Assembly: GCA_017499595.2 (NCBI GenBank)
Contig: CM039005.1
Location: 2,914,001-2,978,000 of the forward strand
Source of the DNA: Psilocybe cubensis
Lineage: Eukaryota
Reading direction: 5' to 3'
Length of the DNA: 64,000 nt
The notes beneath the pieces were generated by a model that was not told the origin of the DNA, made no database searches, and was given only the letters and a program-made list of their open reading frames with translations. Shown here one piece after another: positions 29,014-58,497 of this stretch (position 1 is its first letter; every line of letters begins with the position of its first letter). The position numbers were made by a program, and so were the translations under genes.

Positions 29014-29156
29014 GATAGCAAGGAGCAAAGGTTGCCAACGATGACCGGAAGGACTAGTGACAAACACGAGGCTTGTTGATTGTTTCTGTGGTTAGGGTTT
29101 GTTTAGGTAATCAGGATCAACGAGACTCCTGTTCCGCGTTTGCTTCCTTTTTCTCA
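29014..29156. promoter_or_regulatory. Upstream region of the BTB/CAP-Gly gene, directly repeated at 32584-32732
   Basis: About 140 bp (GATAGCAAGGAGC...GTTAGGGTTTGTTTAG...GTTCCGCGTTTGCTTCCTTTTTCTCA) is shared by both sites. It contains a telo-box-like AAACCCTAA on the minus strand. Confidence 0.6.
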
Positions 29157-39523: not shown

Positions 39524-40156
39524 GGGGCCGCAAAAGGACTTGTATTGTTCTTCTTCTTCGACATTACCTGTCAGCATACAGTCATACAGTCATACAGTAA
39601 AACCTTTTTTGTATCAATCTATTGCTATCCCAACCGTTACCTGTCAAGCTGTTTACATAGACGACGTAGGGTACACATTATCACTGATTGTACAGTGCTG
39701 CTACAATCAACTTTCGTCGTACAAAAAATATTACGCCCATCCAATTCTTTGTATAAAATGACATCAAATTATTTGTTATACTTCAAGTCCCAGTTGCCTG
39801 GGAGAAGTTCAATACAAACTGGCCCGGGCAGGTTATTGGACGCGTGATCAGAACATGGTTAAGAGATGACTGACCCCTGCATATATCCAAATGAATTGTT
39901 TTGTAGCCGGTAGTTATACTCTTATTTTAGATTTAACTTTAAGTTGAGTTAGAGGGAAGTTGATTGCTCCTTTGTGACAAACCCTGGATGCTAGTTGTAA
40001 TTATATTGGGATAAGGCTGGTGAGAGCGATATCTGGAGTATTATTTTTGTATGCGGATATTCGGACCTGGAGGAGCCTTGTTTGGCTGGCCAGTTAGGCT
40101 TAGTTAAGAAACTTAAGTCACGGCGCTAAACAGACCACTCAATATGCAGCATCACG

Positions 40157-41192
40157 ATGTCAAATCAAACAGGTGGGATACCTTGTTTTATGGAATTTTC
40201 AAGTCGGTAAGCGGGTTTAATATTATTGATAGCATTCTGTAGCTCAGCCTCTCCCTCTCGCTGTCGACTCGCCGAAAGTGAAGGTGGTGCCTTTGTTACC
40301 GTCCTCAGGGCCACTTCCTTCTTCGCTCACGCATCCTCCGTCTACATCGTCCCTTTCACATCCACCATCCTCTTCTTCCCCCTCCCCTTCCACACATGCA
40401 CACTCACCACCACCACTACACCCAACCAAAAAATCATCAACGCTCTCTAACACCACCGCCTCCATCAACAAACCGCTCTCATCCATCGACTCTCTCCTAG
40501 CATCCGACGTGCCCACGGGCGCAACACTCGAGATCGGCATCCCATGCATCATCTCGTCGAAGCGGAAGCGGTTTAAGGCGTATGCGAGGTATATTGGCGA
40601 GGTGGTGGGTGAGAAGGGGGAGTGGGTTGGTGTGGAGGTGCCGTTGCCTGCGGGAGGAGTGGGTGGGAGTGGGGATGGGTGGGGGGATGGCTCTGGATCT
40701 GGGATGGCCGGCAGTGGGTTTAGTACTCATAGCGGACATGGGCATGGGAGTGCTGTACTGGACAAGACGGGTGTTGTGGATGATAGACAGTGGAACGACG
40801 GGTCGTGGGGCGGAATCCGATATTTCGAGATTGGGGGTATGCTCTCTGGCTCCGAATTCGACTCTGGGAATCCCACTTGGTACGGCGGCGGCGGCGGCAC
40901 AGACGATCGTGCCGCGCGTCGTAGGCGCCTAGACGGATCGAGCGGCTCTGCCATGGCTGCCTGGGGTACATCTAGCACCGGTGCACTTCGTGGGGACCGC
41001 GATCCGAAGATGCAGGGTTTGTTGAAGAGGGAAGGCGACCAGCTGAGTATTGCGTCGGAGAGGATGAAGAGGGTGCGGAGTGTGAGTCCGGCTGTTTCGG
41101 AGATGTCGGGGTCGGGGGCGGAGTCGAGGGGGTTGTTTGTGAGGCCGCAGCAGGTGCTGTATGTTGTGGATGCTGTTGGAGCGGATTTGTGA
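40157..41192 (+). CDS. Truncated CAP-Gly-only paralog of the BTB/CAP-Gly gene; candidate model 40157-40172 + 40243-41192 (321 aa)
   Basis: 40245-41192 is an open inverted copy of the last ~1 kb of the parent CDS. The candidate first exon ATGTCAAATCAAACAG and 70-nt GT..AG intron give an in-frame join. The first exon is inferred. Confidence 0.5.
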
Positions 41193-43021
41193 GGGTGGGA
41201 TGTGTGGGGGTGGGCGTGGGCGTTGGGGGTGGGGTGGGAGTGGGGGTGGGGTGTGTACCTGGGTCACTTTGAGGGAGGGAGAGTGTGGAGGCTTGGAGGG
41301 TGTGTGTGCTTTTTTCGTTCGTTGATTTCATTTGTCGGTTGTCGTTCGCAAGTCGTTTCTTCCCTTTTGTTTGATTCTGGATTATATGTGTGGTGTAGAT
41401 TTCTTTCTTCTCTTCCATCTTGTTCCTACTTCTGGTTCTGTTCCTGTGCATTTTTCATGTTTTTTTTTGGTTCCGACTAGCTGATCTTCTTTTGATGTAT
41501 TCGAGTTCGAGTTCGAGGTTTGTTGTTTGTGAATTTTTTGGATTTTTTTTCGTTGTTTTGCAATCCGTTATTCAAATATTCAAGTTTTCTTTCGAATGTG
41601 GTCCCTTTCCCTTCGTCTCTGTTTCTCTGTTTCTCTGTTTCTCTCATAATCCGTCTGTCTCTCTCCGATTTCTAATTTCTGACTTCTGATTCTATTTTCC
41701 TTGTGAGTCTGGTTCTGTTCACGATTCACGATGCATGATGTTTCCGTTTCTCGGTTTTTGCCTGCTTTTATGATTTCTTTTTTTTTGGTATTCCACAATC
41801 CCACAATCCCACATACCGTAATCTGCAATCTACACTCTGCAACCCTGCAATCCACAATCCGTAATCATGACCTCACTCTCCGATTTTCTCTTCCCTGCTG
41901 TGTTATACCGTCGTGTTTGTTTTTATTATCATTTGACGATACTGTCTCTATCTCAGTCTCCGTCTCTCTCTCTCTCTCTTCCAGTCTTTGTTTCTCTCAG
42001 TCTTTGTCTCTCTCAGTCTTTGTCTCTCTCTTGTCTTTTTTATCCATTTGCAATTTCCTGTTCTCCAATCCCATTTCCATCTCCCATCTCCCATCTCCCA
42101 TCTCCCATCGAAGTCTTATTCTCCGTTCACCGCTCACCGCTCGACACTCACCGCTCGACACTCGTTTTTTTTATTGGTGATTTTACTACGTACTACGTAC
42201 TACTATTGTTGACTTTCTTTTCGTTTTAATTAACACCCCGATTATTCGTACTCTACACCGCCTATGGCTCACTCGCTCGCTTATTTCTGTTTTAATTGGT
42301 ATACATAGCTATAGATACGTACGTAAAACTACAAAGTATGAGGTATGAGGCACGAGGCACGAGGTAAAGTAGCAAGTAGCACTAGCAAGTATAACTATAA
42401 GCCTGAGTACACCAGACACACTCGTTTAACGTTTAATTCCCATTTTTCTGACAAAATTTTTAGACTTTGGGGATGTGCATTGTGTCGTTCTGTCGTTCTG
42501 TCGTGAGATTTGTTTGGCAGGTTAAACGTGGATTTGCTGTTTGAAGTTTGAAGTGTTGCCGATGCGTGTGGTTACAATTATTCACCTCTTAAAAATGGCG
42601 TCAAAATGATATTTTTATTGACTACGTCGACGTATATACCTTACTGTTTACTTTGAATTTCTGGCATTGGTATCACCTAAATCACCCTCATCTTCATAGT
42701 TTCCGCTCCACCCAATATCAGGTTCTTCGTCCAAGTCCGACTCGTACTCAAACTCCGTATCACTATTGTCCGAGTCAGGCCCAAACGGCCTTTGATAGTA
42801 ATGCTCGTATATCAACTGGCTCAATTCATCCTTCCACAGCCTACTCCTCCGGGGGACCGCTCCTTGATCCGCTACCACCACCTTCAGCGCAATTCCCACG
42901 CGTCTCGCACGCCTGGAAACGACTGTAAGGCAGTATAAGCATTCGAGTAGAGCAATTAAAACACACACACGCACCTTAAAACCTTCAAATATCGCACTAT
43001 CACACATATATTCACACCGAA

Positions 43022-44611
43022 ATGAACGGAACCTCCGGGACTGCCAGAGCCCGGAAAGCTGTCACTGGAAATAGTACAGCAACCCCGGGTACAGGCGATC
43101 CCACGTCAACGGACAAGATGACGAGAAGCAAGGGGACCGTGACAAACGAAGACCTTCAGGAAATCCAGGACTCCCAAGGGGGTCGTTCAATGCTCGAAAA
43201 GAAACAGCTGCTCGTGCCAGCGGGACAAGGTCTCACGGCGGCGAGAGCAGCAATATGTCTGTTCCAAATCTCGCAAATGGACTCGAGGACGCCGGGAGTG
43301 GTAGTGAATGCCATGAGAGGCCTTGCCTTTCTATTAGAAGAAATGGAAATTCCCATCGCAACTCAGGTGTACCACGACGGGTTCGGAGAGGAACTCACCA
43401 CCTTCACAAACGAGATCAAGTCACTCATCACGCACACGCAAGAAAAGGTTGATCAAAAACTTGAGGAGATAACAAAAGCTACGTCAAATCTTATCAAAAC
43501 AGCCGAGGATACTGCAAAGATAACCCCACAGCAGACCCCCCTCTACAGCCAGGTGGCCAGAGGCCACGTATCACACAGTCAAATCGCAGCACAACCGGCT
43601 GTATCAGCCAACCCCAGGCTCCTCGCCAGACACGGAATACGAGCCCGTCAGCTCATGCTAGAAGGAATCGCCAAGGAATCGAAGCTAGGAGCTCACGGCG
43701 ACAGGGAAGCTAAGGACTTTATCAACAAGATCCTCGCCAAACTCGAACCAGAAGGCTCAATACGCATTCGATCGGCAACGAGGCAGCGCAATGGAGGAAT
43801 GCTGGTGGAATTTGACTCGGACTATGGTGCTGCATGGGCAAGGGTTGAGGACAATCGGGACAAGCTGTGTAAGGAGATAGGAGACGACGTTACCACCAAA
43901 AAGCGAACCTACGAAGTCATTGCAATGGGAGCTCCGATAACGGCTGAGCCTGAGGACGCAGATTTCATACAAGAAATAGAGGAGTCCAACAAAATCGAGG
44001 ATGGCACAATAGTGTCGATGCGATGGGCCAAAAAGGTATCCCGACGAGAGCCGGGGCAGAAGTGCGCGCACATCATCATCACGGTCAACGATCCAAAGGA
44101 AGCCAACAGGCTGATTGCCCTCGGTATGTACATTGCTAACAAGCGAGTGAAGGTGCAGAAATGCAAAGTGGACCCGATACGTTGCATGAAGTGCCAAGGC
44201 TACAATCACTACGCGAAGGAATGCACAGCGAAGGAAGACACCTGTGGCCACTGCGGAGCGAAGGGACACCGCACCAGCAACTGTGAAAGAGAGAACATGC
44301 ACTGCATCTCATGCGACGCCGACGATCACCCAAGCTACGCGAGGGAATGCCCCTACTTCAAGAAGAAAGTGGAAGAGAAGGACCAGCGAATCCCTGAGAA
44401 CCGCCTCCCCTTCATCCCAACAGACGAGCCGTGGACCTGGGCCACAAGCGTAGATGCGGCACCCCCTTTCAAGTCAACGTCGAAAAGCTTCCAGCGGGGA
44501 CAATCCCCGAGGTGGACCGTCCAGGACGTCTCGCGGAAGACGACGCCCCGACAGACGAGCCCAGCTAGCCAATCTGACGATGCCAACGAGGAGGCAACCA
44601 AGGAAACCTAG
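43022..44611 (+). CDS. LINE ORF1 (gag-like nucleic-acid-binding protein, 529 aa)
   Basis: Three zinc knuckles: CMKCQGYNHYAKEC, CGHCGAKGHRTSNC, CISCDADDHPSYAREC. Confidence 0.92.
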   Translation: MNGTSGTARARKAVTGNSTATPGTGDPTSTDKMTRSKGTVTNEDLQEIQDSQGGRSMLEKKQLLVPAGQGLTAARAAICLFQISQMDSRTPGVVVNAMRGLAFLLEEMEIPIATQVYHDGFGEELTTFTNEIKSLITHTQEKVDQKLEEITKATSNLIKTAEDTAKITPQQTPLYSQVARGHVSHSQIAAQPAVSANPRLLARHGIRARQLMLEGIAKESKLGAHGDREAKDFINKILAKLEPEGSIRIRSATRQRNGGMLVEFDSDYGAAWARVEDNRDKLCKEIGDDVTTKKRTYEVIAMGAPITAEPEDADFIQEIEESNKIEDGTIVSMRWAKKVSRREPGQKCAHIIITVNDPKEANRLIALGMYIANKRVKVQKCKVDPIRCMKCQGYNHYAKECTAKEDTCGHCGAKGHRTSNCERENMHCISCDADDHPSYARECPYFKKKVEEKDQRIPENRLPFIPTDEPWTWATSVDAAPPFKSTSKSFQRGQSPRWTVQDVSRKTTPRQTSPASQSDDANEEATKET

Positions 44612-45445
44612 ATCAGATGAGTACCAATTCCTCGACAGAACAGGCAAACTCCCAGATCAGAATCCTACAGATAAACCTCAACAAGTCTGAAGTTGCGCAC
44701 CTCGAACTGATCAACGATGATCTCCACGAGCGATTTGACGTTGTGCTAATACAAGAACCACACACCACCCACTTCAAAAATATTCGTACCAACAACAACT
44801 TCCGGCAAGTATATCCTGGAAACCGCAACACGTCAACACCGCGCTCTGGAACGTGGATCAACAAACGACTCAACACCAACAACTGGAGCGAGATCGTCTT
44901 CCCAGATACGGGCGACCTGACCGCAGTACGGATTCAGTGCGAAAGAGGTATAATCTTCATTTTTAATATTTATAATCCTGGACACGAGGGACATACCATC
45001 CGAACGTTACACCAGTATCTGCTCGACAACCGCAATACCATGATGCAGGTAGGCACGCACATGATATGGGCAGGCGATTTCAATCTACACCACCCGATGT
45101 GGGACCGTGATGAAGACACACGTCTCTTCACAAGGACTGCATTAGCGGATGCCGAAAAGCTCATTGAACTGGTAGACACGTACAACATGGCTATGGCACT
45201 GCCAAAAGGACACCCCACGCTCGAACACATGGTCACGAAGAAGCTGTCAAGACCCGACAACGTCTTCTGCTCAGATGGCCTACTCCCGTTTGTCACAAGC
45301 TGCGAAGTCAGGTACGACCTACGCCCGACCAATACAGACCACTACCCAGTCATCACAACAATTGACACAACATACGTTAAATCTGTCGATGTGCCTACCC
45401 GGAACTTCAAACTGGTCGACTGGGAAAAATTCAACAAGACGCTAA

Positions 45446-45895
45446 TGTCAGGGTTTCTCCAGTTTCCCCTCTTTATCTTCACAGAATTATCTTATCCTTT
45501 CATTATCTTATCAATTATCTGATTAGATAGTTTATTTCTTTCATCACAGCCTTCTTGCTCCACTTCTTTCTAGTAAATTCTATATGATTCCTAGTCTTAC
45601 TCATCCTTTTTCTATATGATGTCACTTTTATTCTTTAACCTTCCTTTATGATGTAATGTAGGGAATATTCTAGAATAGCTGTAGAGTATAAATACTGGAC
45701 TTGTAGGTAGCTGTAGCTTCAGCTTCAATCTCTTAGGATATCCACTATCATTGGTGTGATCTCTTAGAACCATTGAATCTCTCTCACTCTCTTATTCTCT
45801 CTTTGCTCTCTTACTCTCCCTCTGCTCTCTCTTTCTCTTTCTTGCTTAATCTTTGTTGGTGGCCTTGTCACACTGATTATAGTGTTGCCCTGACA
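45446..45895 (+). repeat. 5' LTR
   Basis: Termini TGTCAGGG...CCCTGACA; TATAAATA at 45687-45694. Confidence 0.97.
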
Positions 45896-45897
45896 GA

Positions 45898-45908
45898 AGA
45901 TTGAAGCT
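45898..45908 (+). other. Self-priming primer-binding site
   Basis: AGATTGAAGCT, 2 nt after the LTR, is the exact reverse complement of AGCTTCAATCT at 45721-45731, just downstream of the LTR TATA box. Confidence 0.8.
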
Positions 45909-46400
45909 CTCTCAAGACAACTCCACCATCTCTCTTTCAACACCAAACTCTTCACCTCTTCAACCTCTTCAACACCATCACCTCAACCTTCTTCCTCCAC
46001 TTCCAACCCACCAACCTCTTCATCAACCTCTTCACCAATCTTCTTACCAATCTCTACATCTCCACCAATCTTCAACATCCTCCTCAAAACCTTTCCTCAA
46101 GACCTTTCCTCAAGACCTTTGGCTCATCATCTTTCCTACTCTCTGTTGTGTGCTGTGTGTGAACTTAGTAGATAGGGATACCAACTGTTGGGGCAGACAC
46201 AGTCCTACTAGTGTTCTGTTTTTGGTGGTCTAGGAAATATCCAGTAATCCTGTGATCCTAGGTTTAGAGCCCTGAGTGGTGTGACAACTGGGTATCCAGT
46301 AGATAGATATTTTTTTTAGAATACTTAGTATAGTTTCAAGGGCACTTTCAGTAGATAGCTTCTCCCACACACACATCAGAGAGCCTACCTACCCCTACCC

Positions 46401-47510
46401 ATGGACATGGACCCCTCCCAATTGCCTCCCACCACTCCTTCTGTGGAAGAGCTCATGCATCAGGTCCAGCTCCTTACCCAAGAGTTGAATTTTCTTAGAC
46501 AGCAGCAGCAGTCATTATCCACTCCACCACACCCTCAGCAACCAGTCAGTCAGTCACCATCACCACCACCACCACCACCACCTGCTGCTCTAGATATTCA
46601 CTCTTTCCCTACTCCTCATGTTGCCCCTTCCTGTTCACACTCTGCCATTAAAGTCTCACCTCCAGATCCATTTGATGGTTCTATGGAGAAGGCAGAAAAC
46701 TTCCTCAGTCAGCTTAAATTATATTTCTATGGGAAAGGGATTACAGATGACTTTCAGAAAGTTATTTGTGCTCTATCTCATATGAAAGGAGGTACTGCTG
46801 GGAAGTGGGCATATGAGAAGACTAAAGTAATAGACAATGCTCAGTCCCAAGAAGGTCTTTGGGCTGATTTTGTTTATGAATTTAGGGAAGTGTTTGCAGA
46901 TCCAGACCCCTCCAACACAGCTAAGCATAAAATGCACATGCTCAAGCAAGGCAGACAGACTGCTGATGAGTATGTTGCTAGCTTCAGGGCTCTGATCTCA
47001 GATACTGGGTATAATGATGCTGCTTTGGTAGACCAATTCAAGGCTGGGCTTAATGAAAATCTTAGGAATGCAGTCTACTATGTTCCTGACATGCCCAAAA
47101 CCTTGGATGGATGGATTAAATGGAGTACTAGGCTAGATAGGCAGTGGAGACAGAGTGAGGCCTTTACCAAGTCTCTTTCCTCCTCCTCTTCTTCTCCCTT
47201 CCTTAAAGCCCCAACTCCCAAGGCTGTTCCTAAGCCTACTCCAAATCCTCCAGTCTTTTCCAACAGCAGCTCAAGGACCTTTGGTGCTCAGGCAAAGCAA
47301 CCAGATGTAGTTCCCATGGAGGTTGACTCTGGATGGAAGTCAGTTAGGCCAATTGTTTGCTTCAAGTGCAGAAAACCTGGTCATAAGGCTGTAAACTGCA
47401 GGTCATCAGTTAACATCAATGCTATGACCCATGAAGAACTGGCTGACTACTTTGGGAAATTAATCTTGGAAGGCAAGGAGCAGAAAGATGAGGAAAAGAA
47501 AAATTTTTAG
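46401..47510 (+). CDS. gag: Gypsy Gag (369 aa)
   Basis: PDPFDGS, retrotransposon capsid segment LKQG..ADEYVASF, PMEVD, zinc knuckle CFKCRKPGHKAVNC. Confidence 0.95.
   Translation: MDMDPSQLPPTTPSVEELMHQVQLLTQELNFLRQQQQSLSTPPHPQQPVSQSPSPPPPPPPAALDIHSFPTPHVAPSCSHSAIKVSPPDPFDGSMEKAENFLSQLKLYFYGKGITDDFQKVICALSHMKGGTAGKWAYEKTKVIDNAQSQEGLWADFVYEFREVFADPDPSNTAKHKMHMLKQGRQTADEYVASFRALISDTGYNDAALVDQFKAGLNENLRNAVYYVPDMPKTLDGWIKWSTRLDRQWRQSEAFTKSLSSSSSSPFLKAPTPKAVPKPTPNPPVFSNSSSRTFGAQAKQPDVVPMEVDSGWKSVRPIVCFKCRKPGHKAVNCRSSVNINAMTHEELADYFGKLILEGKEQKDEEKKNF
47501..47507 (+). other. -1 ribosomal frameshift slippery heptamer A AAT TTT
   Basis: X XXY YYZ pattern immediately before the gag TAG. pol is in the -1 frame and open through this site. 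Confidence 0.75.
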
Positions 47511-47518
47511 AAGCACCA

Positions 47519-50500
47519 TTGGTGAAAGACATGTCCCAATGGAATAGATTTAATGTACTAGAAAATGAAATTGACAGACTTGATCCTCAGTCTTCAGATT
47601 CTGGTGCAGAAATCATGTCTTCTTCTTCCTCTCTTTCTACCTTCCCTGAAAAGATCTACATCCTCAACCATAATCCTAAAACCTCTACCCATTTGTCTGT
47701 CATCTTAAAGACAATGGACACAGAGAAAAGGTTATCTGTTGATGCTTTGCTTGATTCTGGAGCTACTGGCCTCTTTCTGCATTCTGGTTTTGTGAAGTAT
47801 CATAATCTCAACACAAGGAAACTTCCTAGAGCCATTCCAGTCTATAATGTTGATGGTACTCTCAACAAGAGTGGCTCTATCCATGAGGAAGTAGACTTAA
47901 TTATGGTACACAAAAACCATACAGAAAGGGCCACCTTTGCTGTTTGTGACTTGGGAGACAAATCTGCTATCATTGGACATACTTGGCTTTGGCACCATAA
48001 TCCAGATGTTGATTGGAAGACAGGGGATGTCCAGTTTATTAGATGTCCCTCTGACTGCCAAATGGAAGCCAAAAGAGCCAGAAGAAAGAGGCAGAGAATA
48101 GCTGCAGTCAAAAGGAGGAAACTCCCTCAATTTGATGAAGAAGAAGATGATTCTATTGAAGATTCTTCTGATTCTGAGATTGAGCCTGAGGATAGAATTT
48201 TTATCTCATACCTTCATCCTCAGAAGCAGTCTATTAATGCTACTTCTACTATGTCTCAAAGATTAGCAGAAGAGTCTCATCAGCAAGCTGATTCCCCTAA
48301 GAAAACCTTTGAAGAAACTGTTCCTAAGCACTATCATCAGTTTAAAGGTGTTTTTTCAAAGGAATCTTTTGATAGGCTACCAGACAGAAAGCCTTGGGAT
48401 CATGCTATTGAGCTGAAACCTGGTTCTGAACCTTACAGATCCAAGATTTATCCTCTTTCTCCCAATGAACAAAAGGAACTTGATGCCTTTTTAGAGGAAA
48501 ATCTGAAGTCTGGCAGGATTAGACCCTCCAAGTCACCTATGGCCTCCCCTGTATTCTTTGTCAAGAAGAAGGATGGATCTCTTAGGCTTGTCCAGGACTA
48601 TAGGAAACTGAATGAAATGACCATCAAGAACTCCTACCCCCTTCCATTGATTTCTGACATCATCACCAAACTCAGCAAAGCCAAATACTTCACCAAACTT
48701 GATGTTAGGTGGGGATTTAACAATGTCAGAATCAAAAAGGGAGATGAATGGAAAGCAGCCTTTAGAACCAATAGAGGGCTGTTTGAACCATTGGTCATGT
48801 TCTTTGGTTTAACCAATAGTCCTGCTACCTTCCAAACTATGATGAATGATATCTTTATTGAGCTCATTGATGGAAATGTTGTCATTGTCTACATGGATGA
48901 CATTTTAATTTTCACTGAGACTCTTGATCATCATAGAGAGGTAGTCAAGCAAGTTCTGCAAATCTTAGAACAGAACAAACTCTACCTTAAAGCAGAGAAA
49001 TGTGAATTTGAAAAGGAAAAGATTGAATATCTTGGACTAATCATTTCACAAGGCAGGATTGAGATGGATCCTGTCAAGGTAGAGGGAGTTTCTAAATGGC
49101 CTGAACCTGAAAATGTCAAGGATGTCCAATCATTCTTGGGATTTGTTAATTTTTATAGAAGGTTCATAGAGGATTTTGCAGACATTGCTAAGCCCCTTCA
49201 TGAATTGACAAAGAAAGGAACAGTCTGGAGATGGAGTCTTAGACAGCAGGAAGCCTTTGACCAGTTAAAGAAGAAAGTCACTTCTTCACCTGTCTTGATT
49301 TTCCCTGATGATAACAAGCCATATAAAGTTGAAGCAGACAGTTCAGATTATGCTACTGGGGCTGTTTTATCTCAGGAAGGATCAGATGGGAAATGGCATC
49401 CTGTAGCCTTTATGTCTAAGAGTCTATCTGAAGTAGAAAGGAATTATGAGATCCATGACAAAGAGATGCTGGCTATTATCAGAGCACTAGATGAATGGAG
49501 ACATTATCTTGAAGGAACCCAACATTCCTTTGAGATTTGGACAGACCACAAAAACTTAGAGTACTTTATGGTTGCCCAAAAGCTCAGCAGAAGGCAAGCC
49601 AGATGGTCACTCTTCCTGTCCAGATTTGATTTTACTCTTCATCATAGGCCTGGTAAAAGATCTCTTAAGCCAGATGCTTTGTCTAGGAGACCAGATCATA
49701 AAAAGGGAGAGAATGATAACCAAAATGTAGTTCTCCTCAAACCTTCCTACTTTAAAATCCAGGCTCTCAAGCAGGGCCATGCTACCATTACTGGTGCAGA
49801 AAATGATCTTCTTAAGAAGATTAGAGAAGCTAAGGAGATGGATGAAAAGGTGGTCAAGGCAGTTCAGGAGCTCAAGAAATCTTCTACCAAGAAGATTGAA
49901 GGACAGGAATGGTCAGAAGAACAAGGCCTTATTCTCTACAGGGGGAAGGTGTATGTTCCCAAGGACAAAGATCTTAGAAGAAAGATTGTGGAACTGCACC
50001 ATGATGCCTTCATTGCTGGACATCCAGGGAAATGGAAGACAATTGAGCTAGTCTCTAGGAATTATTGGTGGCCAGGAATGTCACATTTTATTGCAGCCTA
50101 TACCAGAGGTTGTGATAGATGCAACAGAACCAAAACCTTTCCAGCCAAACCTCTTGGCCTTTTAATTCCTACTGAGATTCCCTCTGATGTCTGGCAATGC
50201 ATCTCTGTGGACTTTATTATGGGGTTACCAGAATGTCAAGGGTATAATGCCATTATGGTGGTTGTGGATAGACTTAGTAAAATGATCCACATTATCCCTA
50301 CTACAGATGAAGTCACTTCTGAAGGGACAGCCAGACTATACAGAGATTATATCTGGAAACACCATGGCTTACCCATTAAAATTCTGTGTGATAGAGGTCC
50401 ACAGTTTGTCTCAAGGTTTATGAAAGAACTCAACTCAATACTTGGTATCCAGACAGCCTCATCTACAGCCTACCATCCCCAAACTGATGGTCAGACTGAA

Positions 50501-51388
50501 AGAGTTAACCAAGAAATTGAGCAGTATCTTAGACTCTTTATAAACCATAGACAAGATGATTGGGTTGAATGGTTAGCTCTAGCTGAATTCTCTTATAACA
50601 ATAGAGTTCAGGCTTCAACCAGGCAGACACCATTCATGCTCAATAATGGCAGACATCCCAGAATGGGCACTGAACCCCTTAGAGATAGTAAAATGGACAC
50701 TGTGGATACCTTTGTGAAAAATATGGAAGAAGCCAGAAAAGAAGCAGAGTCTGCACTTAGAAAAGCTGCTGATGATATGGCTAAATTCTATAATAGACAC
50801 AGAGGTACTCCAACTCAGTACAAAGTTGGGGATTTGGTATGGTTAGATGGCAAGGACCTCAAAACTGATAGGCCCTCCAAGAAATTGGATGATAAAAGAT
50901 ATGGGCCTTACAAAATTACCAAAGTTATTAGCCCTAATGCCTATGAGCTTAAGCTGCCATCTACCATGAAAATCCATCCAGTGTTCAATGTGGTTAAACT
51001 TCTACCTTATTACCCAGATATTGTAGGAAGAAAGCCTCCTTCTAGACCACCTCCTGTCATTCAAGGAGAAAATCCTGAGTGGGAAGTTGAATTTATCAAG
51101 GACAGCAGACTTTTTAGAAACAAACTTCAATATTTGGTCAAGTGGAAGAACTATCCTAATGAAGAATGCACTTGGGAGCCTGCAGAGCATTTGAAAAATG
51201 CTTCTAAGGCTATCAAGGACTTCCATGCCAAACATCCTTCAGCACCTAGAAGGATTTCTGCTGTGACCTTTGATAGACTTTCTTTCACTCCTATTATTAA
51301 CTTTACTGAACCTCCTCCTCTTCTTAAACCCTCTAAACTAACCCATCCATGTGCACATTGTGGAAAATGTGCCTTAGAGAGGGGGTGA
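47519..51388 (+). CDS. pol: Gypsy Pol polyprotein with chromodomain
   Basis: Protease LLDSGA, RT YMDD, RNase H ADSSD..RNY..KE, integrase H..H..CDRC, DF..DRG..E, GPY, chromodomain WEVEFI..YLVKWKNY..TWEP. Confidence 0.97.
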   Translation: MVKDMSQWNRFNVLENEIDRLDPQSSDSGAEIMSSSSSLSTFPEKIYILNHNPKTSTHLSVILKTMDTEKRLSVDALLDSGATGLFLHSGFVKYHNLNTRKLPRAIPVYNVDGTLNKSGSIHEEVDLIMVHKNHTERATFAVCDLGDKSAIIGHTWLWHHNPDVDWKTGDVQFIRCPSDCQMEAKRARRKRQRIAAVKRRKLPQFDEEEDDSIEDSSDSEIEPEDRIFISYLHPQKQSINATSTMSQRLAEESHQQADSPKKTFEETVPKHYHQFKGVFSKESFDRLPDRKPWDHAIELKPGSEPYRSKIYPLSPNEQKELDAFLEENLKSGRIRPSKSPMASPVFFVKKKDGSLRLVQDYRKLNEMTIKNSYPLPLISDIITKLSKAKYFTKLDVRWGFNNVRIKKGDEWKAAFRTNRGLFEPLVMFFGLTNSPATFQTMMNDIFIELIDGNVVIVYMDDILIFTETLDHHREVVKQVLQILEQNKLYLKAEKCEFEKEKIEYLGLIISQGRIEMDPVKVEGVSKWPEPENVKDVQSFLGFVNFYRRFIEDFADIAKPLHELTKKGTVWRWSLRQQEAFDQLKKKVTSSPVLIFPDDNKPYKVEADSSDYATGAVLSQEGSDGKWHPVAFMSKSLSEVERNYEIHDKEMLAIIRALDEWRHYLEGTQHSFEIWTDHKNLEYFMVAQKLSRRQARWSLFLSRFDFTLHHRPGKRSLKPDALSRRPDHKKGENDNQNVVLLKPSYFKIQALKQGHATITGAENDLLKKIREAKEMDEKVVKAVQELKKSSTKKIEGQEWSEEQGLILYRGKVYVPKDKDLRRKIVELHHDAFIAGHPGKWKTIELVSRNYWWPGMSHFIAAYTRGCDRCNRTKTFPAKPLGLLIPTEIPSDVWQCISVDFIMGLPECQGYNAIMVVVDRLSKMIHIIPTTDEVTSEGTARLYRDYIWKHHGLPIKILCDRGPQFVSRFMKELNSILGIQTASSTAYHPQTDGQTERVNQEIEQYLRLFINHRQDDWVEWLALAEFSYNNRVQASTRQTPFMLNNGRHPRMGTEPLRDSKMDTVDTFVKNMEEARKEAESALRKAADDMAKFYNRHRGTPTQYKVGDLVWLDGKDLKTDRPSKKLDDKRYGPYKITKVISPNAYELKLPSTMKIHPVFNVVKLLPYYPDIVGRKPPSRPPPVIQGENPEWEVEFIKDSRLFRNKLQYLVKWKNYPNEECTWEPAEHLKNASKAIKDFHAKHPSAPRRISAVTFDRLSFTPIINFTEPPPLLKPSKLTHPCAHCGKCALERG
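51376..51385 (+). other. Polypurine tract
   Basis: AGAGAGGGGG lies 3 nt before the 3' LTR. Confidence 0.8.
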
Positions 51389-51838
51389 TGTCAGGGTTTC
51401 TCCAGTTTCCCCTCTTTATCTTCACAGAATTATCTTATCCTTTCATTATCTTATCAATTATCTGATTAGATAGTTTATTTCTTTCATCACAGCCTTCTTG
51501 CTCCACTTCTTTCTAGTAAATTCTATATGATTCCTAGTCTTACTCATCCTTTTTCTATATGATGTCACTTTTATTCTTTAACCTTCCTTTATGATGTAAT
51601 GTAGGGAATATTCTAGAATAGCTGTAGAGTATAAATACTGGACTTGTAGGTAGCTGTAGCTTCAGCTTCAATCTCTTAGGATATCCACTATCATTGGTGT
51701 GATCTCTTAGAACCATTGAATCTCTCTCACTCTCTTATTCTCTCTTTGCTCTCTTACTCTCCCTCTGCTCTCTCTTTCTCTTTCTTGCTTAATCTTTGTT
51801 GGTGGCCTTGTCACACTGATTATAGTGTTGCCCTGACA
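51389..51838 (+). repeat. 3' LTR
   Basis: No differences from the 5' LTR found by eye. Confidence 0.97.
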
Positions 51839-54800
51839 GCTAAGAGCACGCCTTAGACGTGAACAACAACCAGGACCGATCCGCTCGCCGGAGGAAATCG
51901 AGGAATCAGTGCACGTACTGACTCGGGCTTTGCAAGACACGATCGTGAAAGAGGTCAAGCTGCGCAAGCCGTTGCCAGACAAGAAGTGATGGTGGACAGG
52001 TGATGTAGAAGAGGCAAAACGGTACAAAAACAGGCTGAGCAGTTTACATCACAGGTTCCGGGCGCTGCCAGACCATCCCTGTCACCTTGAATACAAAGCA
52101 GCAAAACGGTCGTTTGCAAGGTTGGTAATCGAGGCAAAGAAGACGCACTGGGAAGAGTGGCTACTCGAAGCAGAAGGCGGCGATATTTGGACAGCAAACC
52201 GGTACTTCAAGAACCCGACAGGAGACGGAGGCAGACCACGCATTCCATCCCTGCATGTCAGCAACGAGTACGAGGAGCTAGAAGAGGTAACCACTAATGA
52301 GGAGAAAGCTCAAGTTTTCGCTAGAGCCTTCTTCCCCAAAAAGCCACTCCACTCGTCGGTCCCACTCGACTACCAGTATCCGGAAGCACTACCCGACCTG
52401 GGGGCAATCACAAGAAGTCAGATCACCCGGCAACTTCGACGACTGTCACCACACAAGGCACCTGGAATCGATGAAATCCCCAACGTAGTGCTCCAGAAAA
52501 CGGCCCCAATTATTACAGACCACCTCTATCACCTGTACAATGCTATTCTGGATACAAACTACTATCCGGCATCGTGGAAACACTCGATCACGGTAGTTTT
52601 AAGAAAACCAGGTAAACCTAACTACAAGATTGCAAAAGCTTACCGTCCTATAGCCCTCCTCAACACTCTCCCAAAAGTGCTGACGGCGATAGTAGCGGAA
52701 CGCCTGAGTTTCATCACGGAAACTCACAATCTGCTCCCGGATACACACTTTGGAGGCCGCCCAGGTAGGACGACCTCCGACGCCATGCACTACCTTACCG
52801 AAAAAGTCAAATCTGCATGGAGAAGAGGTAAAGTAGCCTCAATCCTGTTCCTAGACGTCGAGGGCGCCTTTCCGAATGCGGTCACGGATCGTCTCCTTCA
52901 CAATCTGAGGAAACGCAGAATACCAAAGAAATATGTTGACTTCATCGCAAACCTACTCAAAGATAGGAAGACGAAACTGAAGTTCGACGATTTTATATCC
53001 GCTCTGATGAAAATCGACAATGGTATTGGCCAAGGTGACCCTCTCTCCATGATACTGTACATCATTTACAATGCAGATCTGCTTGAAATCGTCAACCGGG
53101 AGGACGACGAGGATGCGATTGGCTATGTCGACGATGTAACAATGATTGCAGTGGGAGATACAATGGACGAAACCACTGACAAGCTCAGCATTATCATGAA
53201 CGACGAAGGAGGGGCCCAGACATGGAGCGACGACCATAACTCAACGTTTGAAGTGTCGAAACTGGCGATAATGCATATGGACCCGCGCGACCCTGACACA
53301 CTGGATCATCCACGTCTGGAAGTGAAAGGGGAGTTGGTAAAACAGGTGAACCACTTTAGATGCCTTGGTTTTCAGATTGATTGTCGTCTGCAGTGGAAGG
53401 TGCACTTACAGAAGGCAACAGAGAAGGCAACAAAGTGGCTGTCGAACTTCCGACGGCTGTCCAAACCAAGCACGGGCATCCAACCCAAGCTAATGCGTCA
53501 ACTGTACATAGCGACGGTGATCCCAAGGCTCGCATACGGTATTGATGTTTGGTATACACCACCTACGAAACCAGCGGGATACCGCAGGAATACAGGGTCG
53601 GTAGCCGCGCTCCGACAAATGACAACGATACAGCGGAAAGCTACTCTCGTAATCACTGGAGCCATGCGGTCAACACCAACAGAGCTACTGGATGCCCATG
53701 CGGGCGTCCTGCCACTCGAACTCCTGCTGCTGAAGATTTGCCACAGAGCGGTAACGCGGATGTGCACCCTGCCAATGACGCACCCTCTCCACAAGGCAAT
53801 CCAGAGTGCAGGCACAAGAACTCAACGAAGGCACAGATCCCCAATATATCTACTGCTTAAAATCTTTGACATGGCACCCGAGTCAATGGAAACAATCTCT
53901 CCATTCACAATACCACCCACGTACAACCCTCCGTTCAAAATCGTTATCGCGAGAACTCGGAAGGAATCAATGCGAATTGAAAAGGAGTGCAAAGCTAAGT
54001 TCAGAATCTACTCGGATGGATCGGGTCATAACGGTCACGTAGGTGCTGCGGCCGTCCTATTGAAAACAAGGAAGGATCGACATGGGAAGGTACTCCGCAA
54101 ATACCTGGGCCCAAAAGAGAAACACAACACGTATGAAGCGGAGGGTGTTGGAAGCATCCTGGCCCTAGAGCTGGCTCGAAGCGAGAAACCAGAAGCAAAC
54201 GATGAAATCGCAATCTTTAGCGACAACCAGTCCCTTCTAACAAACTCAAACATGCCTAGAGCTAAGTCGGGTCAATATCTAGCACGGAAATTGATTGACG
54301 CAGCACAAGTCATACAGGGGAGGATTACACTGTACTGGATTTCCGGCCACTCAGATGTATTGGGTAATGAAAGAGCCGATGAAGAAGCGAAACGAGCGGC
54401 CGAGGGAGACAGCAGTCCGATGGAGGAGCTTCCGACATCTCTGCAGCACGCCCTACCCGCCAGCGCATCTGCAGAACGACAAGCCTATCACGTCGAACTA
54501 CTATCCATGTGGGAAGAACGCTGGAACGAGTCCAAACGAAAGGCGATATTCAACACAAAGAAGATCGACACCGAGTTCCCATTTACAAAATTCAGGAAGA
54601 CAGCACAGCGACTGAACAGAGCTCAAGCTAGCATCCTGGTACAACTACGCTCCGGACACGTAGCGCTGAACTCGCACCTCAGCAAATTCGATCCCAAGTT
54701 CACAAAACATTGCCCGAAATGCTACGAGCGACGAATGGGCGAACGGGCGACAGAAACAGTCAAACACTTCCTGTTCGAATGCAGGGCGCACAGCAGTCAA

Positions 54801-56951
54801 AGGCAAGAAATGTGGGCGGAGATCGGCGACAAAATCACGAATCTAGAGGATCTTACAACGAAATATGCGAATGCTAAAGCACTGGTGACATATATTGCAA
54901 AAACAAAGAGGCTAAAACGAACATACAAAGACGACATACTACTACGAGGACTGGAGGAGGAGGAGGACTAGGGAGGAGGGAACAAACACACAAAGTGGTC
55001 CAAGGGACCGCGAAGACAAAAGGAGGTCAAGGAGGTGGAATACACCAGGAGGGAAGGAACTGCCTAAAGGAGGCGCTGGAGGCGCTGGGCCAAACAACCC
55101 GGGGAAGGGGTTGGGTCTAGAGGGGGGACGAGAGGGCCCTCCGAGACGCAGGCACAGGCCGATGAAGGCAACCACGGGCTCGGGGAGTCTATAGGTAAAT
55201 TAGTAGTACTACGCCGAGGGAGGGATCCTCCCCTCAGAGGCGCTAACACAAAAATAAAAAAAAAAAATAAAAAAACTCCTCCGGGAAACACGCGATTCGC
55301 CGGGATAGAACCCCAGAAGCTTTTCTCGTTCTTCTACAATGTGCTTGGGGTACTGAGTGACGATATCGCCGCCTTGAAAGTTTATGTAGAGGCAGTTAAC
55401 GAAGTGCGCGCGGAGGAATATGTCCTTGGGTCCGATTTTGAACTGGGCTTTAAGACTCGGATGATGGAAGTAGGCTTGGATATTGGGTCCGATGAGTGGT
55501 TGTGCCGCTGGTCCGAAGTTTTTGAGTACCACGATGCGATAGTCGTCCTGAAAGTGGATGCATGTCATTTCATGCTGATTATTTTTCTAGCTTAGGAAAA
55601 CAAGTAGCGGGATACTGACATCTACGTCAACGCCAAACGCCCCGTCAAGGAAAGCATCCGCCAAGTCCTTGAGAAGCGTAAATGCATTGTCGGACTTGTA
55701 AAGCTCCGTGGTCGATTTGTATACACCACCACCATCGACATACCTCATCTAAATTTTCGAGAATCAGCCCATAGAACTTTTGACAATAGAGGATTGCACT
55801 CACAGCAAACGGTAAAGGAGGTGGAACTGCCCATACAACAGTGATTGCATCATCTCCTGCAGTGCCGGAAATGAGACACCGTCCGTTGTCACGTTCGAGG
55901 ACCTCCTTCTGAATATCATCTGGGACTTCTATCGTATGAATATAAAATCCCACCATGTACATCATTTCAGGAGCCACAGGCCGAAGCAGCCAGGATTTCT
56001 CTTTTGGCAATGTCGATTGATATTTGATTTGTTTGAAAGACAGTATGTTGCTCGTAGGAGCTATAGGATCGATTTTCTTATCTGCCTCATCGAATAATAT
56101 GCGCAGTCTGCAAAACAAACACAATAATATACGACAAAAGGAGGTGCTCACTTGCAAAAACTTGAAAGTCGTAGTCCCCAGGGGGCAGCGGCTCAGTCGA
56201 CATTTCCGGGATATTCTCCCCGCTCCGATATCGTTCGTAGTAGAATAGTCCAATTGGAACACTGGTGATTTTTACGGGATATATCTCGAACTTGACACGG
56301 CGGTCGTTGCTGGTATCAAGAAGACTGGCCCATGTGTGTAGAATTTTGCTGGTGATTGGCGTTACGTTGTGGTTCAGCCCTGTGGATGTCGTTATACCAT
56401 TAGCAACAAAAGACGATGGATGAATCATGAGCCTCTAACGCACCACCGATGAGTCGATGACTGGTTGGTGCCCAGAAGAACGTGTCTTTTCCGAGTGTCT
56501 TCGATACTTTTGAGAGTACGTGTTTTGGCTTGTATTGATCCTCGTTGGGGAGTTGATTTTCAGCTTCTGGCATAGCAGGCTCTTGTGTGTGTTTACTGCC
56601 GACGCTGGCTGGGGTGCTCGGTAGGGCGATGGACATTGGAGATGGACGATTATCGACACTATTCGTTGTATTGATGATCATCAAATTCTCACAATTCACT
56701 TACTACAAAAATATCCTTGCCGTTACTACAAAATTGAAAAAATGGGTACGAGACTTCACTAAGTTATTGCTTATTGGCCGAGCATGCGGAGTTCGAATAT
56801 ATAGCTTACAATCGCACTCCGAGCCGCGCGGCATCATCAGACAGGTATTATAACTGTGGGAATGTGAGGAACATGATAGCCTTGCTCACCGTACGTAAAG
56901 TCATCGATTCATCTGCCTTTTCTCAGCGATTCGTTAGGCGCAAAAGATCAA

Positions 56952-58497
56952 ATGTCGGATTCGGAGAAAAACAAACCTGAAAGTGGAAAGCATGATGAGG
57001 AAAATGCAGATGCACGCGTATCTAGTGAGCTTAGTTCCGAGAAAGTACACGTTAAGAAGACCAAGTGAAAACACGTCTCATTTCAGTTACACCCTCAGAA
57101 GTTGAGGCGCAATACCAGCCACAGCATATACTTTCAAAGGTATCCAAGGACCTCGGCAAGGACATTTTCTTCTGGACTCCAAAGAGTATGCACCTCATGG
57201 GCGGTGAGTAAGAGGTGTGGCCAGTATCGCAAGTATGTCGGCTGATGCTCATCGTAGGGTTGAACCATAATGTCACACCAATCAACAGCAGGATTCTGCA
57301 TCTTTGGGCCACTCTTCTCGATTTCAGAAAGGAACGTCGCGTCAAGTTCGAGGTATTCCCAGTGACAGTGAAAAGAATTCCTACCGGAATATTCCACCAC
57401 GAACGATATCGCAGTGGAGAGAACATCCCCGAGATGTCGACTGATACGCTGCCCCCTGGGGATTATGATTTCCATGTTTTTGGCGGTGTGTAAATTGCAT
57501 ATGGTATTGTATACGTACTCAAAGGATATTTAATTTGCAGAGAAAAAAATACATCCTTTTTATCCGACCTTTAACATTCCATCTTTTAAGAGAGTCAAAT
57601 ATTTAACCACACTTCCAAAGGAAGAAGCAGTCTTGATTTACACCGTCAGACCAGAAGAAGTGTTCATGGTAAGCAATATCCCCCAATATTAAATTCTAGG
57701 AAATACTTGAAAAGTTCAATAGTTTGACGTACCCGACGACGTCCAGAAGCATGTTCTCCAAAGAGATCACGGACAATGTGTAGTTACTGGCGTTTCGGGA
57801 GACGATGTAGTTTCTGTCGTATGGGCAGTTCCACCTCCATTAATTTATGCGGTAAGGGATCTGATTTGTCATTCTTCGACCTTGAGTACTAATTCCATAT
57901 AAAAAGATGAAGTATGTGGAAGGCGGACGCACATACAGCGCAATGGGGGAACTCTACAAATCAATTAATGCTATCACACTTCGAAAGGACCTCGCTGATG
58001 CTTTCCTTGATGGAGCTTTTGGCATCGATGTAGATGTCTGTGCTTGATATGCCTTATTTCTTCAAGACTTTACTTACTATGAATAACATTTGCAGGACGA
58101 TTACCGAGTTGTGGTACTCCGTAATTTCGGACCGGAGGCGCAGTCGCTCATTGGAACCAACATCCAAGCATACTTCCGTCAACCCGGCGCTAAGGATCGA
58201 TTTGAAGGACCTATGGACATATTTCTCCGTGCTCATTTCGCTAATTGCCTTTTTGTCAACTTTCAAGGCGGTGATATTGTCGATCAATACCCAATGCACG
58301 TTGTCGGTGAAAGATGTAACCGACTTGGTCTTTCTCTGGGTGAATCGCGCATTTCACGTCGGAGCAAATTGTGGAATGACGAATTGAGCCAGATTTTATA
58401 TGAACACTGTTACGGAAGGCCCTTTGGTCCTCATCCAGACAACAGTGATTCGGAGTTTCAATACGAGTCGGACTTGGACGAGGAGGGTTGGCAGTAA
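56952..58497 (+). CDS. Pseudo-HNH family protein, copy D (head-to-head with E-prime)
   Basis: MSDSEKN..(extra intron from ~57025)..KDIFFWTPKSMHLMGG / ..TLPPGDY / RDHGQCVVTG..VVWAVPP / INAITLRKDLADAFLDGAFGIDVD / DDYRVVVL..DIFLRAHF..DNSDSEFQYESDLDEEGWQ*. Confidence 0.85.

Follow-up and report, generated by a model that had tools for sequence, protein, structure and literature searches.

A young, multi-copy Ty3/gypsy chromovirus of Psilocybe cubensis that contains no CpG dinucleotide

In mushroom-forming fungi the chief heritable brake on transposons is considered to be DNA methylation, which targets CpG almost exclusively. The window analysed here, a stretch of 64,000 nucleotides of the Psilocybe cubensis genome, holds an LTR retrotransposon in which an initial annotation, made from the sequence alone, had noticed no CpG at all, and which it took for an active lineage purged of methylation targets. 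What is this element, how complete is the absence, and how could an intact transposon have come by it? The premise of that annotation, that methylation in these fungi falls on transposons mainly at CpG, agrees with a published study, where basidiomycete 5mC is predominantly CpG methylation of repeats and CHG methylation amounts to 0.5% (PMC6191308). The literature searched contained no paper on Psilocybe that deals with DNA methylation or with the composition of its TEs.

The element occupies positions 45446 to 51838 (6,393 bp, 41.0% G+C) and is a Ty3/gypsy chromovirus of the Tf1/sushi type. This copy, one of many, is complete, was inserted very recently and lies nested in a LINE (Table 1). 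As in other Metaviridae, direct LTRs with TG...CA ends (identical at 450 of 450 positions) are bordered by a 5-bp target-site duplication, gag contains a capsid region and a CCHC knuckle, and pol follows the order protease, reverse transcriptase, RNase H, integrase. Pfam matches in pol comprise RVT_1 (E 1e-37), RT_RNaseH (5e-39), Integrase_H2C2 (7e-20), rve (2e-10) and SH3_Tf2-1 (6e-18); the evidence for the protease is a DSG motif that is invariant in our alignment A1, with no match to Pfam RVP at E ≤ 0.001. The chromodomain (PF00385, pol residues 1188-1237, E 2.5e-15) lies after rve and SH3_Tf2-1 and places the element among the chromoviruses. Relative to gag, pol is read in the -1 frame, which stays open from 47492 onwards. 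Where this region recurs as a paralogous inverted copy, the host LINE is missing. One host ORF matches a protein of Psilocybe cubensis at 100% identity, which agrees with an agaricomycete host. A search for Rfam families within 40000-57000 found none.

A tRNA-type primer-binding site was ruled out, as no TGG follows the 5' LTR. The 11 nt at 45898-45908 are an exact complement of 45721-45731, a stretch that begins 34 nt after TATAAA; we estimate the chance of such an 11-nt complement at about 0.002 for the search space. The pairing is kept in both the MFE and centroid folds (z -1.77). From this complementarity we infer a candidate primer-binding site of the Tf1-like self-priming type.

Table 1. 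Features of the CpG-free element and its insertion site (positions within the window)
Feature	Position	Strand	Remarks
Target-site duplication, left copy (GCTAA, 5 bp)	45441..45445	+	same 5 bases after 3' LTR
5' LTR, 450 bp, TG...CA, 8-bp terminal inverted repeat	45446..45895	+	450/450 identical to 3' LTR; 0 CpG vs 13.4 expected
TATA box TATAAATA in LTR	45687..45694	+	predicted U3/R boundary (transcription start) lies about 30 nt further downstream
11-nt stretch at predicted R start, reverse complement of primer-binding site (candidate self-primer)	45721..45731	+	exact complement
Untranslated leader with short tandem repeats	45896..46400	+	0 CpG vs 21.0 expected; copies vary in length (13-nt and 1-nt variants)
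Candidate primer-binding site, Tf1 self-priming type	45898..45908	+	2 nt after 5' LTR
gag, 369 aa: Ty3 capsid-like, Retrotrans_gag, CCHC zinc knuckle	46401..47510	+	E 3e-10, 3.5e-9, 3.3e-4
pol, about 1,298 open codons: protease motif, RT, RNase H, integrase, SH3_Tf2-1, chromodomain	47492..51388	+	Pfam
Candidate -1 frameshift heptamer A AAT TTT, directly before gag stop codon	47501..47507	+	putative slippage site
Chromodomain, integrase C-terminus, pol residues 1188-1237	51080..51229	+	Pfam
Polypurine tract adjoining 3' LTR, overlapping pol stop codon	51376..51388	+	sequence
3' LTR, identical to 5' LTR	51389..51838	+	LTR comparison
Target-site duplication, right copy (GCTAA)	51839..51843	+	sequence
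Host LINE (ORF1, endonuclease, RT, RNase H) carrying the insertion	42853..55275	+	CpG O/E about 0.87-1.01 per kb

Base composition predicts 266.8 CG dinucleotides for the element, and counting returned 0 (Poisson P(0) = e^-267), in agreement with both the absence noticed at first and the couple of hundred then roughly expected. The reverse dinucleotide GC occurs 216 times (O/E 0.81). CpG is absent from every part, from gag (57.1 expected) and pol (158.3 expected) as well as from the 955 bp of non-coding LTR and leader (Table 1). At the codon level, all 91 Arg residues are encoded by AGR (12 in gag, 79 in pol) and none by CGN, again as first noted; the three ORF pieces of the interrupted LINE use 78 CGN vs 51 AGR. 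None of the 398 four-fold codons for Ser, Pro, Thr and Ala is NCG, and no codon ending in C is followed by one starting with G, where about 89.5 such junctions were expected. Were CpG only as frequent as in the intact relative with the strongest depletion (O/E about 0.06, an expectation of about 16), the probability of finding none would still be about 1e-7.

The CG-free run extends from 45440 to 51849 (6,409 bp), the nearest CGs lying 6 bases before the first base of the element and 11 bases past its last; the next longest such run in the window is 202 bp. The flanks are CpG-normal, with 2,428 CG on the left (O/E 0.97) and 614 on the right (O/E 0.93), bearing out the earlier description of the surrounding LINE and host sequence as CpG-rich. 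A regional CpG desert is thus ruled out, since the limits of the run coincide with the ends of the element, and the earlier claim that the depletion predates the insertion is upheld by the confinement of the zero-CpG state to the element. General word avoidance was likewise ruled out: every 3-mer and 4-mer without CG occurs in the element, so the avoidance is specific to CG. With no CG present, CG methylation of the element is impossible. Escape from CG methylation follows logically, and escape from silencing may be a consequence of it.

Raw DNA reads show that the element is one of many. In one run (X19), internal read depth was 1,353-1,662 vs a flank depth of 15-64, a ratio that corresponds to about 30-90 family copies; the LINE, at a depth of 15-33, is low-copy. 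A total of 45,128 of the 73,017 mapped reads (62%) are at least 99% alike and a further 32% are 95-99% alike. At the two LTR ends, 1,595 and 1,082 reads pass into unlike sequence with a consensus agreement of only 0.33-0.34, which indicates many insertion sites. A 13-nt deletion at 46081 is carried by 687 of 1,609 reads, and an LTR:internal depth of about 2.7 reveals an excess of solo LTRs. Among the best-supported 40 of 859 read differences, only one is carried by all reads, and it lies in the flank at 40658. The sequence is present in runs of 8 studies, with no RNA run listed among them. A run that is RNA by guess only (X14) contributed six short contigs at a depth of 2.4-4.5, too little to be of use. 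For a diverged relative in another run (X13), none of the 39 listed differences creates a CpG vs 3.5 expected (P(0) 0.02), a weak signal. The identical LTRs, the target-site duplication and the open ORFs, all but the duplication among the first observations on this locus, establish that the element is intact and young; the multi-copy state and youth of the family fit an active lineage.

We compared CpG content across 128 relatives of at least 3.5 kb each, the DNA relatives reached having at most 59% amino acid identity. The median CpG O/E is 0.85 in the 43 relatives with an intact pol ORF vs 0.42 in 76 broken ones (p 2.6e-13), compared with 0 for the element and 0.87-1.01 per kb for the LINE. 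CpG loss therefore usually accompanies decay, and the element is an exception. Intact relatives encode a median of 60% of Arg as CGN, which implies that the lineage of the element was recoded. Among intact elements, just one more approaches zero CpG (L151), an unrelated chromovirus whose circularly permuted contig is deposited as part of a bacterial MAG; it has intact gag-pol (ORFs of 1,461 and 730 aa), 23 CpG vs 392 expected and 3 CGN among 78 Arg codons. The nearest protein cluster, at 87% amino acid identity, includes 7 proteins of Psilocybe cf. subviscida and points to a long residence in the genus; the next named relatives belong to Agaricales or other Agaricomycetes (Lyophyllum, Phellinidium), with source names of the type 'tf2 155 kDa protein type 1-like'. 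Scans for DNA of closer relatives gave lower identities: IMG/VR scans with pol, alignment A1 and two close relatives as queries returned relatives at ≤53% identity or nothing, a metagenome scan with ultra-conserved peptides gave 38-60% relatives among the matches listed, and a scan of prokaryote genomes gave contaminant contigs at ≤58%.

If the CpGs had been lost by deamination, a surplus of TpG and CpA would be the footprint. We looked for this in the dinucleotides of the element and did not find it: the mean TG/CA O/E is 1.20 vs 1.54 when the trend of the intact relatives is extrapolated to CG = 0, and AG, CT and CC are raised instead. The element consequently differs on two counts from a hypermutated TE, having no TpG/CpA surplus and retaining an open gag and pol with all domains present. 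It contains 909 TG+CA sites, each one transition away from CG. The initial proposal of an active lineage purged by methylation is thus sustained in part: the family is multi-copy and young, but deamination as the cause is opposed by the missing surplus and by the older LINE, which is not CpG-depleted.

We propose that the element represents an active lineage whose CpGs were purged under the CG-methylation and deamination regime of the host, probably aided by selection, and that it is now unmethylatable at CG; we give this proposal equal weight for and against. Agaricomycetes would place 5mC almost only on CpG within repeats, where methylated CpG would mutate to TpG/CpA, and in ordinary relatives such mutation would appear as CpG loss plus ORF decay. 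The lineage of the element, by comparison, would have passed this filter copy after copy, the masters still transposing being those with synonymous or tolerated CpG losses only; for Arg, CGR could become AGR via a single synonymous C>A change. Masters with fewer CpGs would undergo less methylation and less mutation and would leave more descendants, leading to an end state with no substrate for CG methylation or methyl-CpG deamination. The LTR promoter would then not be CG-methylatable and the ORFs would be immune to the main repeat-directed mutation, with the chromodomain presumably still directing insertions to heterochromatin or other TEs, as in the LINE insertion observed here. This proposal is consistent with the recent expansion to tens of near-identical copies. 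Against it stands the resident earlier LINE, which is not CpG-depleted, though low-copy; its normal CpG content indicates that CpG decay is not the general fate of TEs here. From copy number alone, we infer that the CpG-free state may bring a transposition advantage.

A bolder reading, held tentatively and with somewhat less than even confidence, is that of a 'stealth-recoded' retrotransposon, in which the adaptive loss of all CpGs, from the promoter and leader through to gag and pol, would have hidden the lineage from a CG-specific defence and enabled the recent burst to tens of copies; at least one distant chromovirus (L151) would have reached the same solution on its own. If so, CpG erasure would be a recurrent counter-defence strategy of fungal retroelements.

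Mutation might also have sufficed. An efficient repeat-directed CpG-to-TpG process (MIP/RIP-like, dependent on Masc2/Dnmt1), combined with purifying selection on the proteins, could lead to a CpG-free equilibrium that confers no transposition benefit. CpG loss is indeed widespread, with a median O/E of 0.58 and values down to 0.03 in a set of 139 relative loci, and it tracks decay; a persistent lineage also gathers exposure across many copy generations. However, to keep 909 TG+CA sites at 0 CG (upper bound about 3), by our calculation CpG would have to be lost more than about 300 times as fast as it is gained, and the most decayed of the 128 relatives still hold at least 5% of the expected CpG. 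The TG/CA surplus is missing and the adjoining low-copy LINE is untouched. A CpG-to-TpG bias is documented in basidiomycete TEs (PMC4352252, PMC3318451), but Horns et al. saw no clear sign of RIP-like hypermutation among the three Agaricomycotina that they examined (PMC3318451). We consider mutation on its own unlikely.

It is more doubtful still that the composition was imported, that is, gained in a host with a harsher regime and brought into Psilocybe by horizontal transfer, in which case it would say little about the present host. The dinucleotide profile of the element is unlike that of its flanks (AG and CT O/E 1.38 vs 0.93; CG 0 vs 0.96), CpG is at normal levels in the resident LINE and in host genes, and the expansion of near-identical copies is burst-like. 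Set against this, the nearest relatives are multi-copy in a congeneric species, the next come from Agaricales and other Agaricomycetes, and the solo-LTR excess together with the 95-99% class of reads indicates some residence time.

Selection at the RNA or cDNA level, by a host factor that senses or edits CpG there (a ZAP-like sensor or a CpG-context deaminase) in place of genomic DNA methylation, appears similarly improbable. All parts of the element, U3 included, are present in genomic RNA, so that DNA- and RNA-level pressure are inseparable in these data, and TG/CA is not enriched as simple genomic deamination predicts. However, we know of no CpG-specific RNA sensor in fungi, and decayed genomic copies of the relatives lose CpG after insertion, pointing to a DNA-level process. 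CpG methylation of repeats, moreover, is the documented CpG-specific system in basidiomycetes (PMC6191308).

Total CpG absence is otherwise typical of engineered CpG-free constructs, but an artefact, whether it arose in assembly or sequencing or through contamination (for instance by converted reads or by synthetic CpG-free DNA), can practically be dismissed given the natural LTR-retrotransposon anatomy, the target-site duplication inside a host LINE, the agreement of independent raw reads with the sequence, the many insertion sites and natural length variation seen in those reads, the presence of the element in runs of 8 studies, and natural relatives at up to 87% amino acid identity.

A complete, young, multi-copy CpG-free element provides a natural control for the idea of methylation as a brake. 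Should the family prove to be expressed, free of methylation and still expanding, with families that carry CpG silenced, it would directly show that sequence evolution can defeat CG methylation, and what this costs in codon choice; should it nevertheless be silent, other layers (H3K9 methylation, RNAi) must suffice. The promoter and ORF pair of the element, CpG-free by nature, could also be put to use as they are in basidiomycete reporter experiments.

Like Tf1/Tf2 of Schizosaccharomyces pombe and the sushi chromoviruses, the element has the order gag-PR-RT-RH-IN-chromodomain, an SH3_Tf2-1 domain and a candidate primer-binding site complementary to the predicted start of its own transcript. 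Tf1 expresses gag-pol as a single ORF, unlike the element, where gag and pol are split by a candidate -1 frameshift, and to our knowledge Tf1 has no CpG-free composition. L151 is a second, independent near-CpG-free and active-looking element; unlike the one described here, to which it is about 32% identical in amino acid sequence, it is not fully CpG-free and has a TG/CA surplus (1.45/1.26).

No description of a completely CpG-free intact retrotransposon was found in the literature searched, though Clutterbuck 2017 (Fungal Genet Biol 104:16) may contain related cases. The CG-deficient TE fraction of basidiomycete genomes described in that paper, as cited in PMC11451569 and PMC10787394, and the CpG-to-TpG bias of basidiomycete TEs (PMC4352252, PMC3318451) link CpG deficiency to TEs, with methylation and subsequent deamination as the cause given. 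Our 76 broken relatives fit this picture; that fraction consists of hypermutated, decaying copies with a TpG/CpA surplus, whereas the element is intact, young and multi-copy, with zero CpG and no surplus. In Microbotryum, TE lineages show a paucity of TpCpG where C-to-T would be non-synonymous (PMC3318451), and the two cases share the idea of a TE lineage whose sequence adapts to the motif that a host hypermutation defence attacks. In that member of the Pucciniomycotina the paucity concerns a trinucleotide and is partial, whereas here a dinucleotide is wholly gone from all codon positions and from non-coding sequence. A parallel in promoter design is ONSEN (ATCOPIA78), an active element of Arabidopsis thaliana whose promoter LTR lacks CG and CHG sites, read by its authors as bypassing stable maintenance methylation (PMC3907296). 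The 450-bp LTR promoter of our element is likewise free of the symmetric sites relevant to its host, here CG. Unlike ONSEN, a plant Ty1/copia element in which the absence of sites is reported for the LTR of about 440 bp only, it is CG-free throughout its 6.4 kb, of which about 5 kb are coding, and its fungal host methylates practically no context other than CG.

The chromovirus at window positions 45446-51838, a Ty3/gypsy element inserted in a host LINE of Psilocybe cubensis, contains no CG dinucleotide over its 6,393 bp (41% G+C), as compared with the 266.8 predicted by base composition. The initial annotation, made from the sequence alone, had described an element devoid of CpG where a couple of hundred would be expected, and both statements are borne out by the computed count. 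The reverse dinucleotide, GC, is present in 216 copies (observed/expected ratio, O/E, 0.81), and a word count shows that every 3-mer and 4-mer lacking CG occurs in the element, hence the avoidance is specific to CG. The CG-free run begins 6 bases before the element and stops 11 bases after it, while the second-longest such run across the 64-kb window is 202 bp; the trait is thus a property of the inserted element and not of the region. In line with the earlier reading of the flanks and LINE, the former hold 2,428 CG to the left (O/E 0.97) and 614 to the right (O/E 0.93). The absence extends to the codon level, with arginine encoded exclusively by AGA/AGG, as previously noted (91/91 codons), no NCG among 398 Ser/Pro/Thr/Ala four-fold codons, and no C|G codon junctions against approximately 89.5 expected. 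By comparison, 78 of the 129 Arg codons in the interrupted LINE are CGN. The zero-CpG observation is therefore confirmed and highly non-random.

Structurally, the element is unremarkable for a Tf1/sushi-like chromovirus, but its composition is extraordinary. It is intact, as had been proposed, with gag present, pol open and LTRs identical at 450/450 positions. The LTRs start with TG, end with CA and carry an 8-bp terminal inverted repeat, and a 5-bp target-site duplication is found on both sides of the element. The heptamer A AAT TTT, which follows the X XXY YYZ pattern, lies immediately 5' of the gag stop and is the putative site of -1 frameshifting. The protease DSG motif shows no variation when pol is aligned with 37 of the 120 listed homologues, and a 13-nt polypurine tract adjoins the 3' LTR. 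A tRNA-type primer-binding site is absent. Instead, an 11-nt stretch starting 2 nt past the 5' LTR is exactly complementary, in reverse orientation, to another 11-nt stretch located 34 nt 3' of the LTR TATAAA, and this pairing is kept in both the minimum-energy and centroid structures of the predicted 5' RNA fold (z -1.77). With a transcription start predicted from sequence, this layout would be that of the self-priming Tf1/sushi-type chromoviruses.

Window coordinates and CpG content of the element and its surroundings
Feature	Window position	Expected CpG	Observed CpG	Description
CG-free run	45440-51849		0	6,409 bp
LTR (each)		13.4	0	450 bp
Leader		21.0	0	
Leader repeats	46046-46110			short tandem repeats
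gag	46401-47510	57.1	0	Ty3-capsid, Retrotrans_gag and CCHC matches
pol	47492-51388	158.3	0	open, -1 frame; RT, RNase H, integrase zinc and core, SH3_Tf2-1, C-terminal chromodomain
Interrupted LINE	about 42853-55275			endonuclease upstream of element, RT and RNase H downstream
LINE ORF2 stop	51987-51989			in frame, shortly after gypsy insertion
Inverted segmental duplication	14591-23986 vs 60283-37710			blocks of 82-97% identity
Flank junction, left duplicate	about 21369-21379			LINE and nested gypsy missing
G+C-rich block	22963-29044			58-62% G+C vs 40-47% in surroundings
Partial copy of G+C-rich block	40233-41192			

The LINE frame is continuous across the insertion, and as ORF2 carries a single in-frame stop, the LINE was probably already defective. 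The LINE and nested gypsy are missing from the left copy of the large inverted duplication, which places duplication first, LINE insertion second and gypsy insertion last. Two ORFs lie in the G+C-rich block, one of 1,257 aa matching CAP-Gly and one of 537 aa containing a BTB domain; taken together, they match a single 1,888-aa Psilocybe cubensis protein at 100% identity. As the 1,257-aa ORF is identical to a P. cubensis protein along its whole length, the host is an agaricomycete, as assumed previously.

Raw DNA reads from sequencing run X19 confirm the assembled sequence and reveal a young, dispersed, multi-copy family. Summed read depth is 1,353-1,662 over the element interior, about 4,100 over the LTR and 15-64 over 5.4 kb of flanking sequence, equivalent to some 30-90 full-length copies, the figure varying with the baseline chosen. 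The LTR/interior ratio of ~2.7 implies about 0.65 solo LTRs for each full copy. Most aligned reads (45,128 of 73,017) are at least 99% alike, with a further 23,143 at 95-99%. The LTR start is crossed by 1,595 reads and the LTR end by 1,082, joining unlike sequence with a consensus agreement of only 0.33-0.34, which indicates many different insertion sites. The recent activity claimed by the initial annotation is thereby supported. At least two subfamilies are distinguished by leader length variants that occur in large read fractions: a 13-nt unit is deleted in 687 of 1,609 reads, while the T-run at 46310 is shorter by one T in 562 of 1,381. Rare internal deletion joints also occur (for example 48236 to 49624, 15 reads). 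The element was detected, whole or in part, in 16 rows from 8 studies, 11 of them with half or more of the sampled words and 0 recorded as RNA.

Among 8,000 scored candidates, 6,005 are significant homologues of pol, the best at 87% identity in a cluster that includes seven Psilocybe cf. subviscida proteins; other named relatives are from Agaricomycetes. Run X13, which bears another organism label, contains contigs of a relative ~83-87% identical in nucleotides (47728-47990 and 49375-49608; word depth ~3,200-3,300), together with low-depth contigs almost identical to the window's element. Of the 39 differences from the diverged relative on an incomplete list, none introduces a CpG where 3.5 would be expected (P(0) 0.02, a small test), only a hint that it is CpG-poor too. 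Most close homologues (listed pol homologues P0001-P0120; fetched loci L001-L011 and L092-L098) lie on contigs of ~4-6.5 kb, about one element long, in metagenome and virus collections, so that whole chromovirus units come out of assembly as stand-alone contigs and enter IMG/VR as viral genomes.

The CpG comparison drew on 178 loci retrieved from IMG/VR, JGI metagenomes and, as contaminant contigs, prokaryote genome records, all at no more than 59% amino acid identity. Over the pol-matching region of the 139 loci in which 700 or more residues align, CpG O/E ranges from 0.03 to 1.29 (median 0.58). Intact and broken copies were contrasted among the 128 loci reaching 3.5 kb, with 50 shorter ones excluded: those with an intact pol ORF (1,000 aa or more, n=43) have a median O/E of 0.85 within the ORF and 0.81 over the whole locus, as opposed to 0.42 over the whole locus for broken copies (longest ORF below 600 aa, n=76; Mann-Whitney p 2.6e-13), with nine loci bearing ORFs of 600-999 aa excluded. 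CpG loss in this clade thus normally accompanies decay, which matches the CpG-to-TpG bias (PMC4352252, PMC3318451) and the reported CG deficiency (Clutterbuck 2017) of basidiomycete transposable elements. Intact relatives encode a median of 60% of Arg as CGN. Only two intact elements depart from the rule, the window's element (O/E 0) and L151, the lowest O/E among the remainder being 0.43. L151 (1-8087) has 23 CpG against 392 expected and CGN in 3 of 78 Arg codons; at ~32% identity, this distant chromovirus from a eukaryote is unrelated to the window's element and likewise nearly CpG-free. Its intact ORFs of 1,461 and 730 aa lie on a contig that is circularly permuted, carries a 300-nt terminal repeat and is catalogued under a bacterial MAG (Amoebophilaceae). 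In all, 90 stretches in bacterial or archaeal genome or MAG records (entry L099-L178) encode eukaryotic Ty3/gypsy pol relatives; being mostly on short low-coverage contigs, these look like eukaryotic contamination.

The CG-free run being bounded by the element's ends, the depletion is a lineage-level trait older than this insertion, as first proposed, and the family has recently expanded. With no CG site, CG methylation and methyl-CpG deamination have no target within the element. The purge would have been driven by host CpG-directed methylation and mutation acting over generations of copies, with purifying selection maintaining the proteins and selection probably favouring less-methylatable masters. 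One synonymous change suffices to turn CGA into AGA or CGG into AGG, and NCG codons and C|G junctions are always replaceable synonymously, hence the route need not cross a fitness valley. The original interpretation of an active lineage purged of methylation targets is plausible and partly supported, in that the lineage-level trait, the agaricomycete host and the recent activity hold; beyond these lie a proposed causal chain and a putative escape from silencing. Simple deamination is opposed by the absence of a TG/CA surplus (mean O/E 1.20, versus 1.54 extrapolated at CG = 0 from the intact-relative trend), AG, CT and CC being raised instead, and by the CpG-normal, though low-copy, pre-existing LINE. 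Both agree better with recoding that is old, equilibrated or selected than with a recent C-to-T wave, and leave room for two further origins: the CpG-free state may have been imported from another host, or may reflect pressure on the RNA or cDNA. An equilibrium set by mutation alone is less easily accepted, as the 909 TG+CA sites each lie one transition from CG, such that zero CpG (upper bound about 3) requires loss >~300x faster than gain. CpG is retained at 5% or more even in the most decayed relatives, and Horns et al. (PMC3318451) found RIP-like hypermutation not to be clear in the three Agaricomycotina examined.

Our literature search, covering main texts other than Clutterbuck 2017, found no account of a complete, active-looking zero-CpG retrotransposon, so an earlier mention is possible, and nothing on methylation or transposable element composition in Psilocybe. 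The nearest functional precedent is ONSEN of Arabidopsis, whose lack of symmetric methylation sites (CG and CHG), interpreted by its authors as a means of avoiding stable maintenance methylation, is reported for the LTR only (PMC3907296). The known CG-deficient basidiomycete fractions combine decay with a TpG/CpA surplus, whereas the window's element shows neither feature. For Microbotryum elements, Horns et al. (PMC3318451) report a paucity of TpCpG at non-synonymous positions, a weaker form of the same idea.
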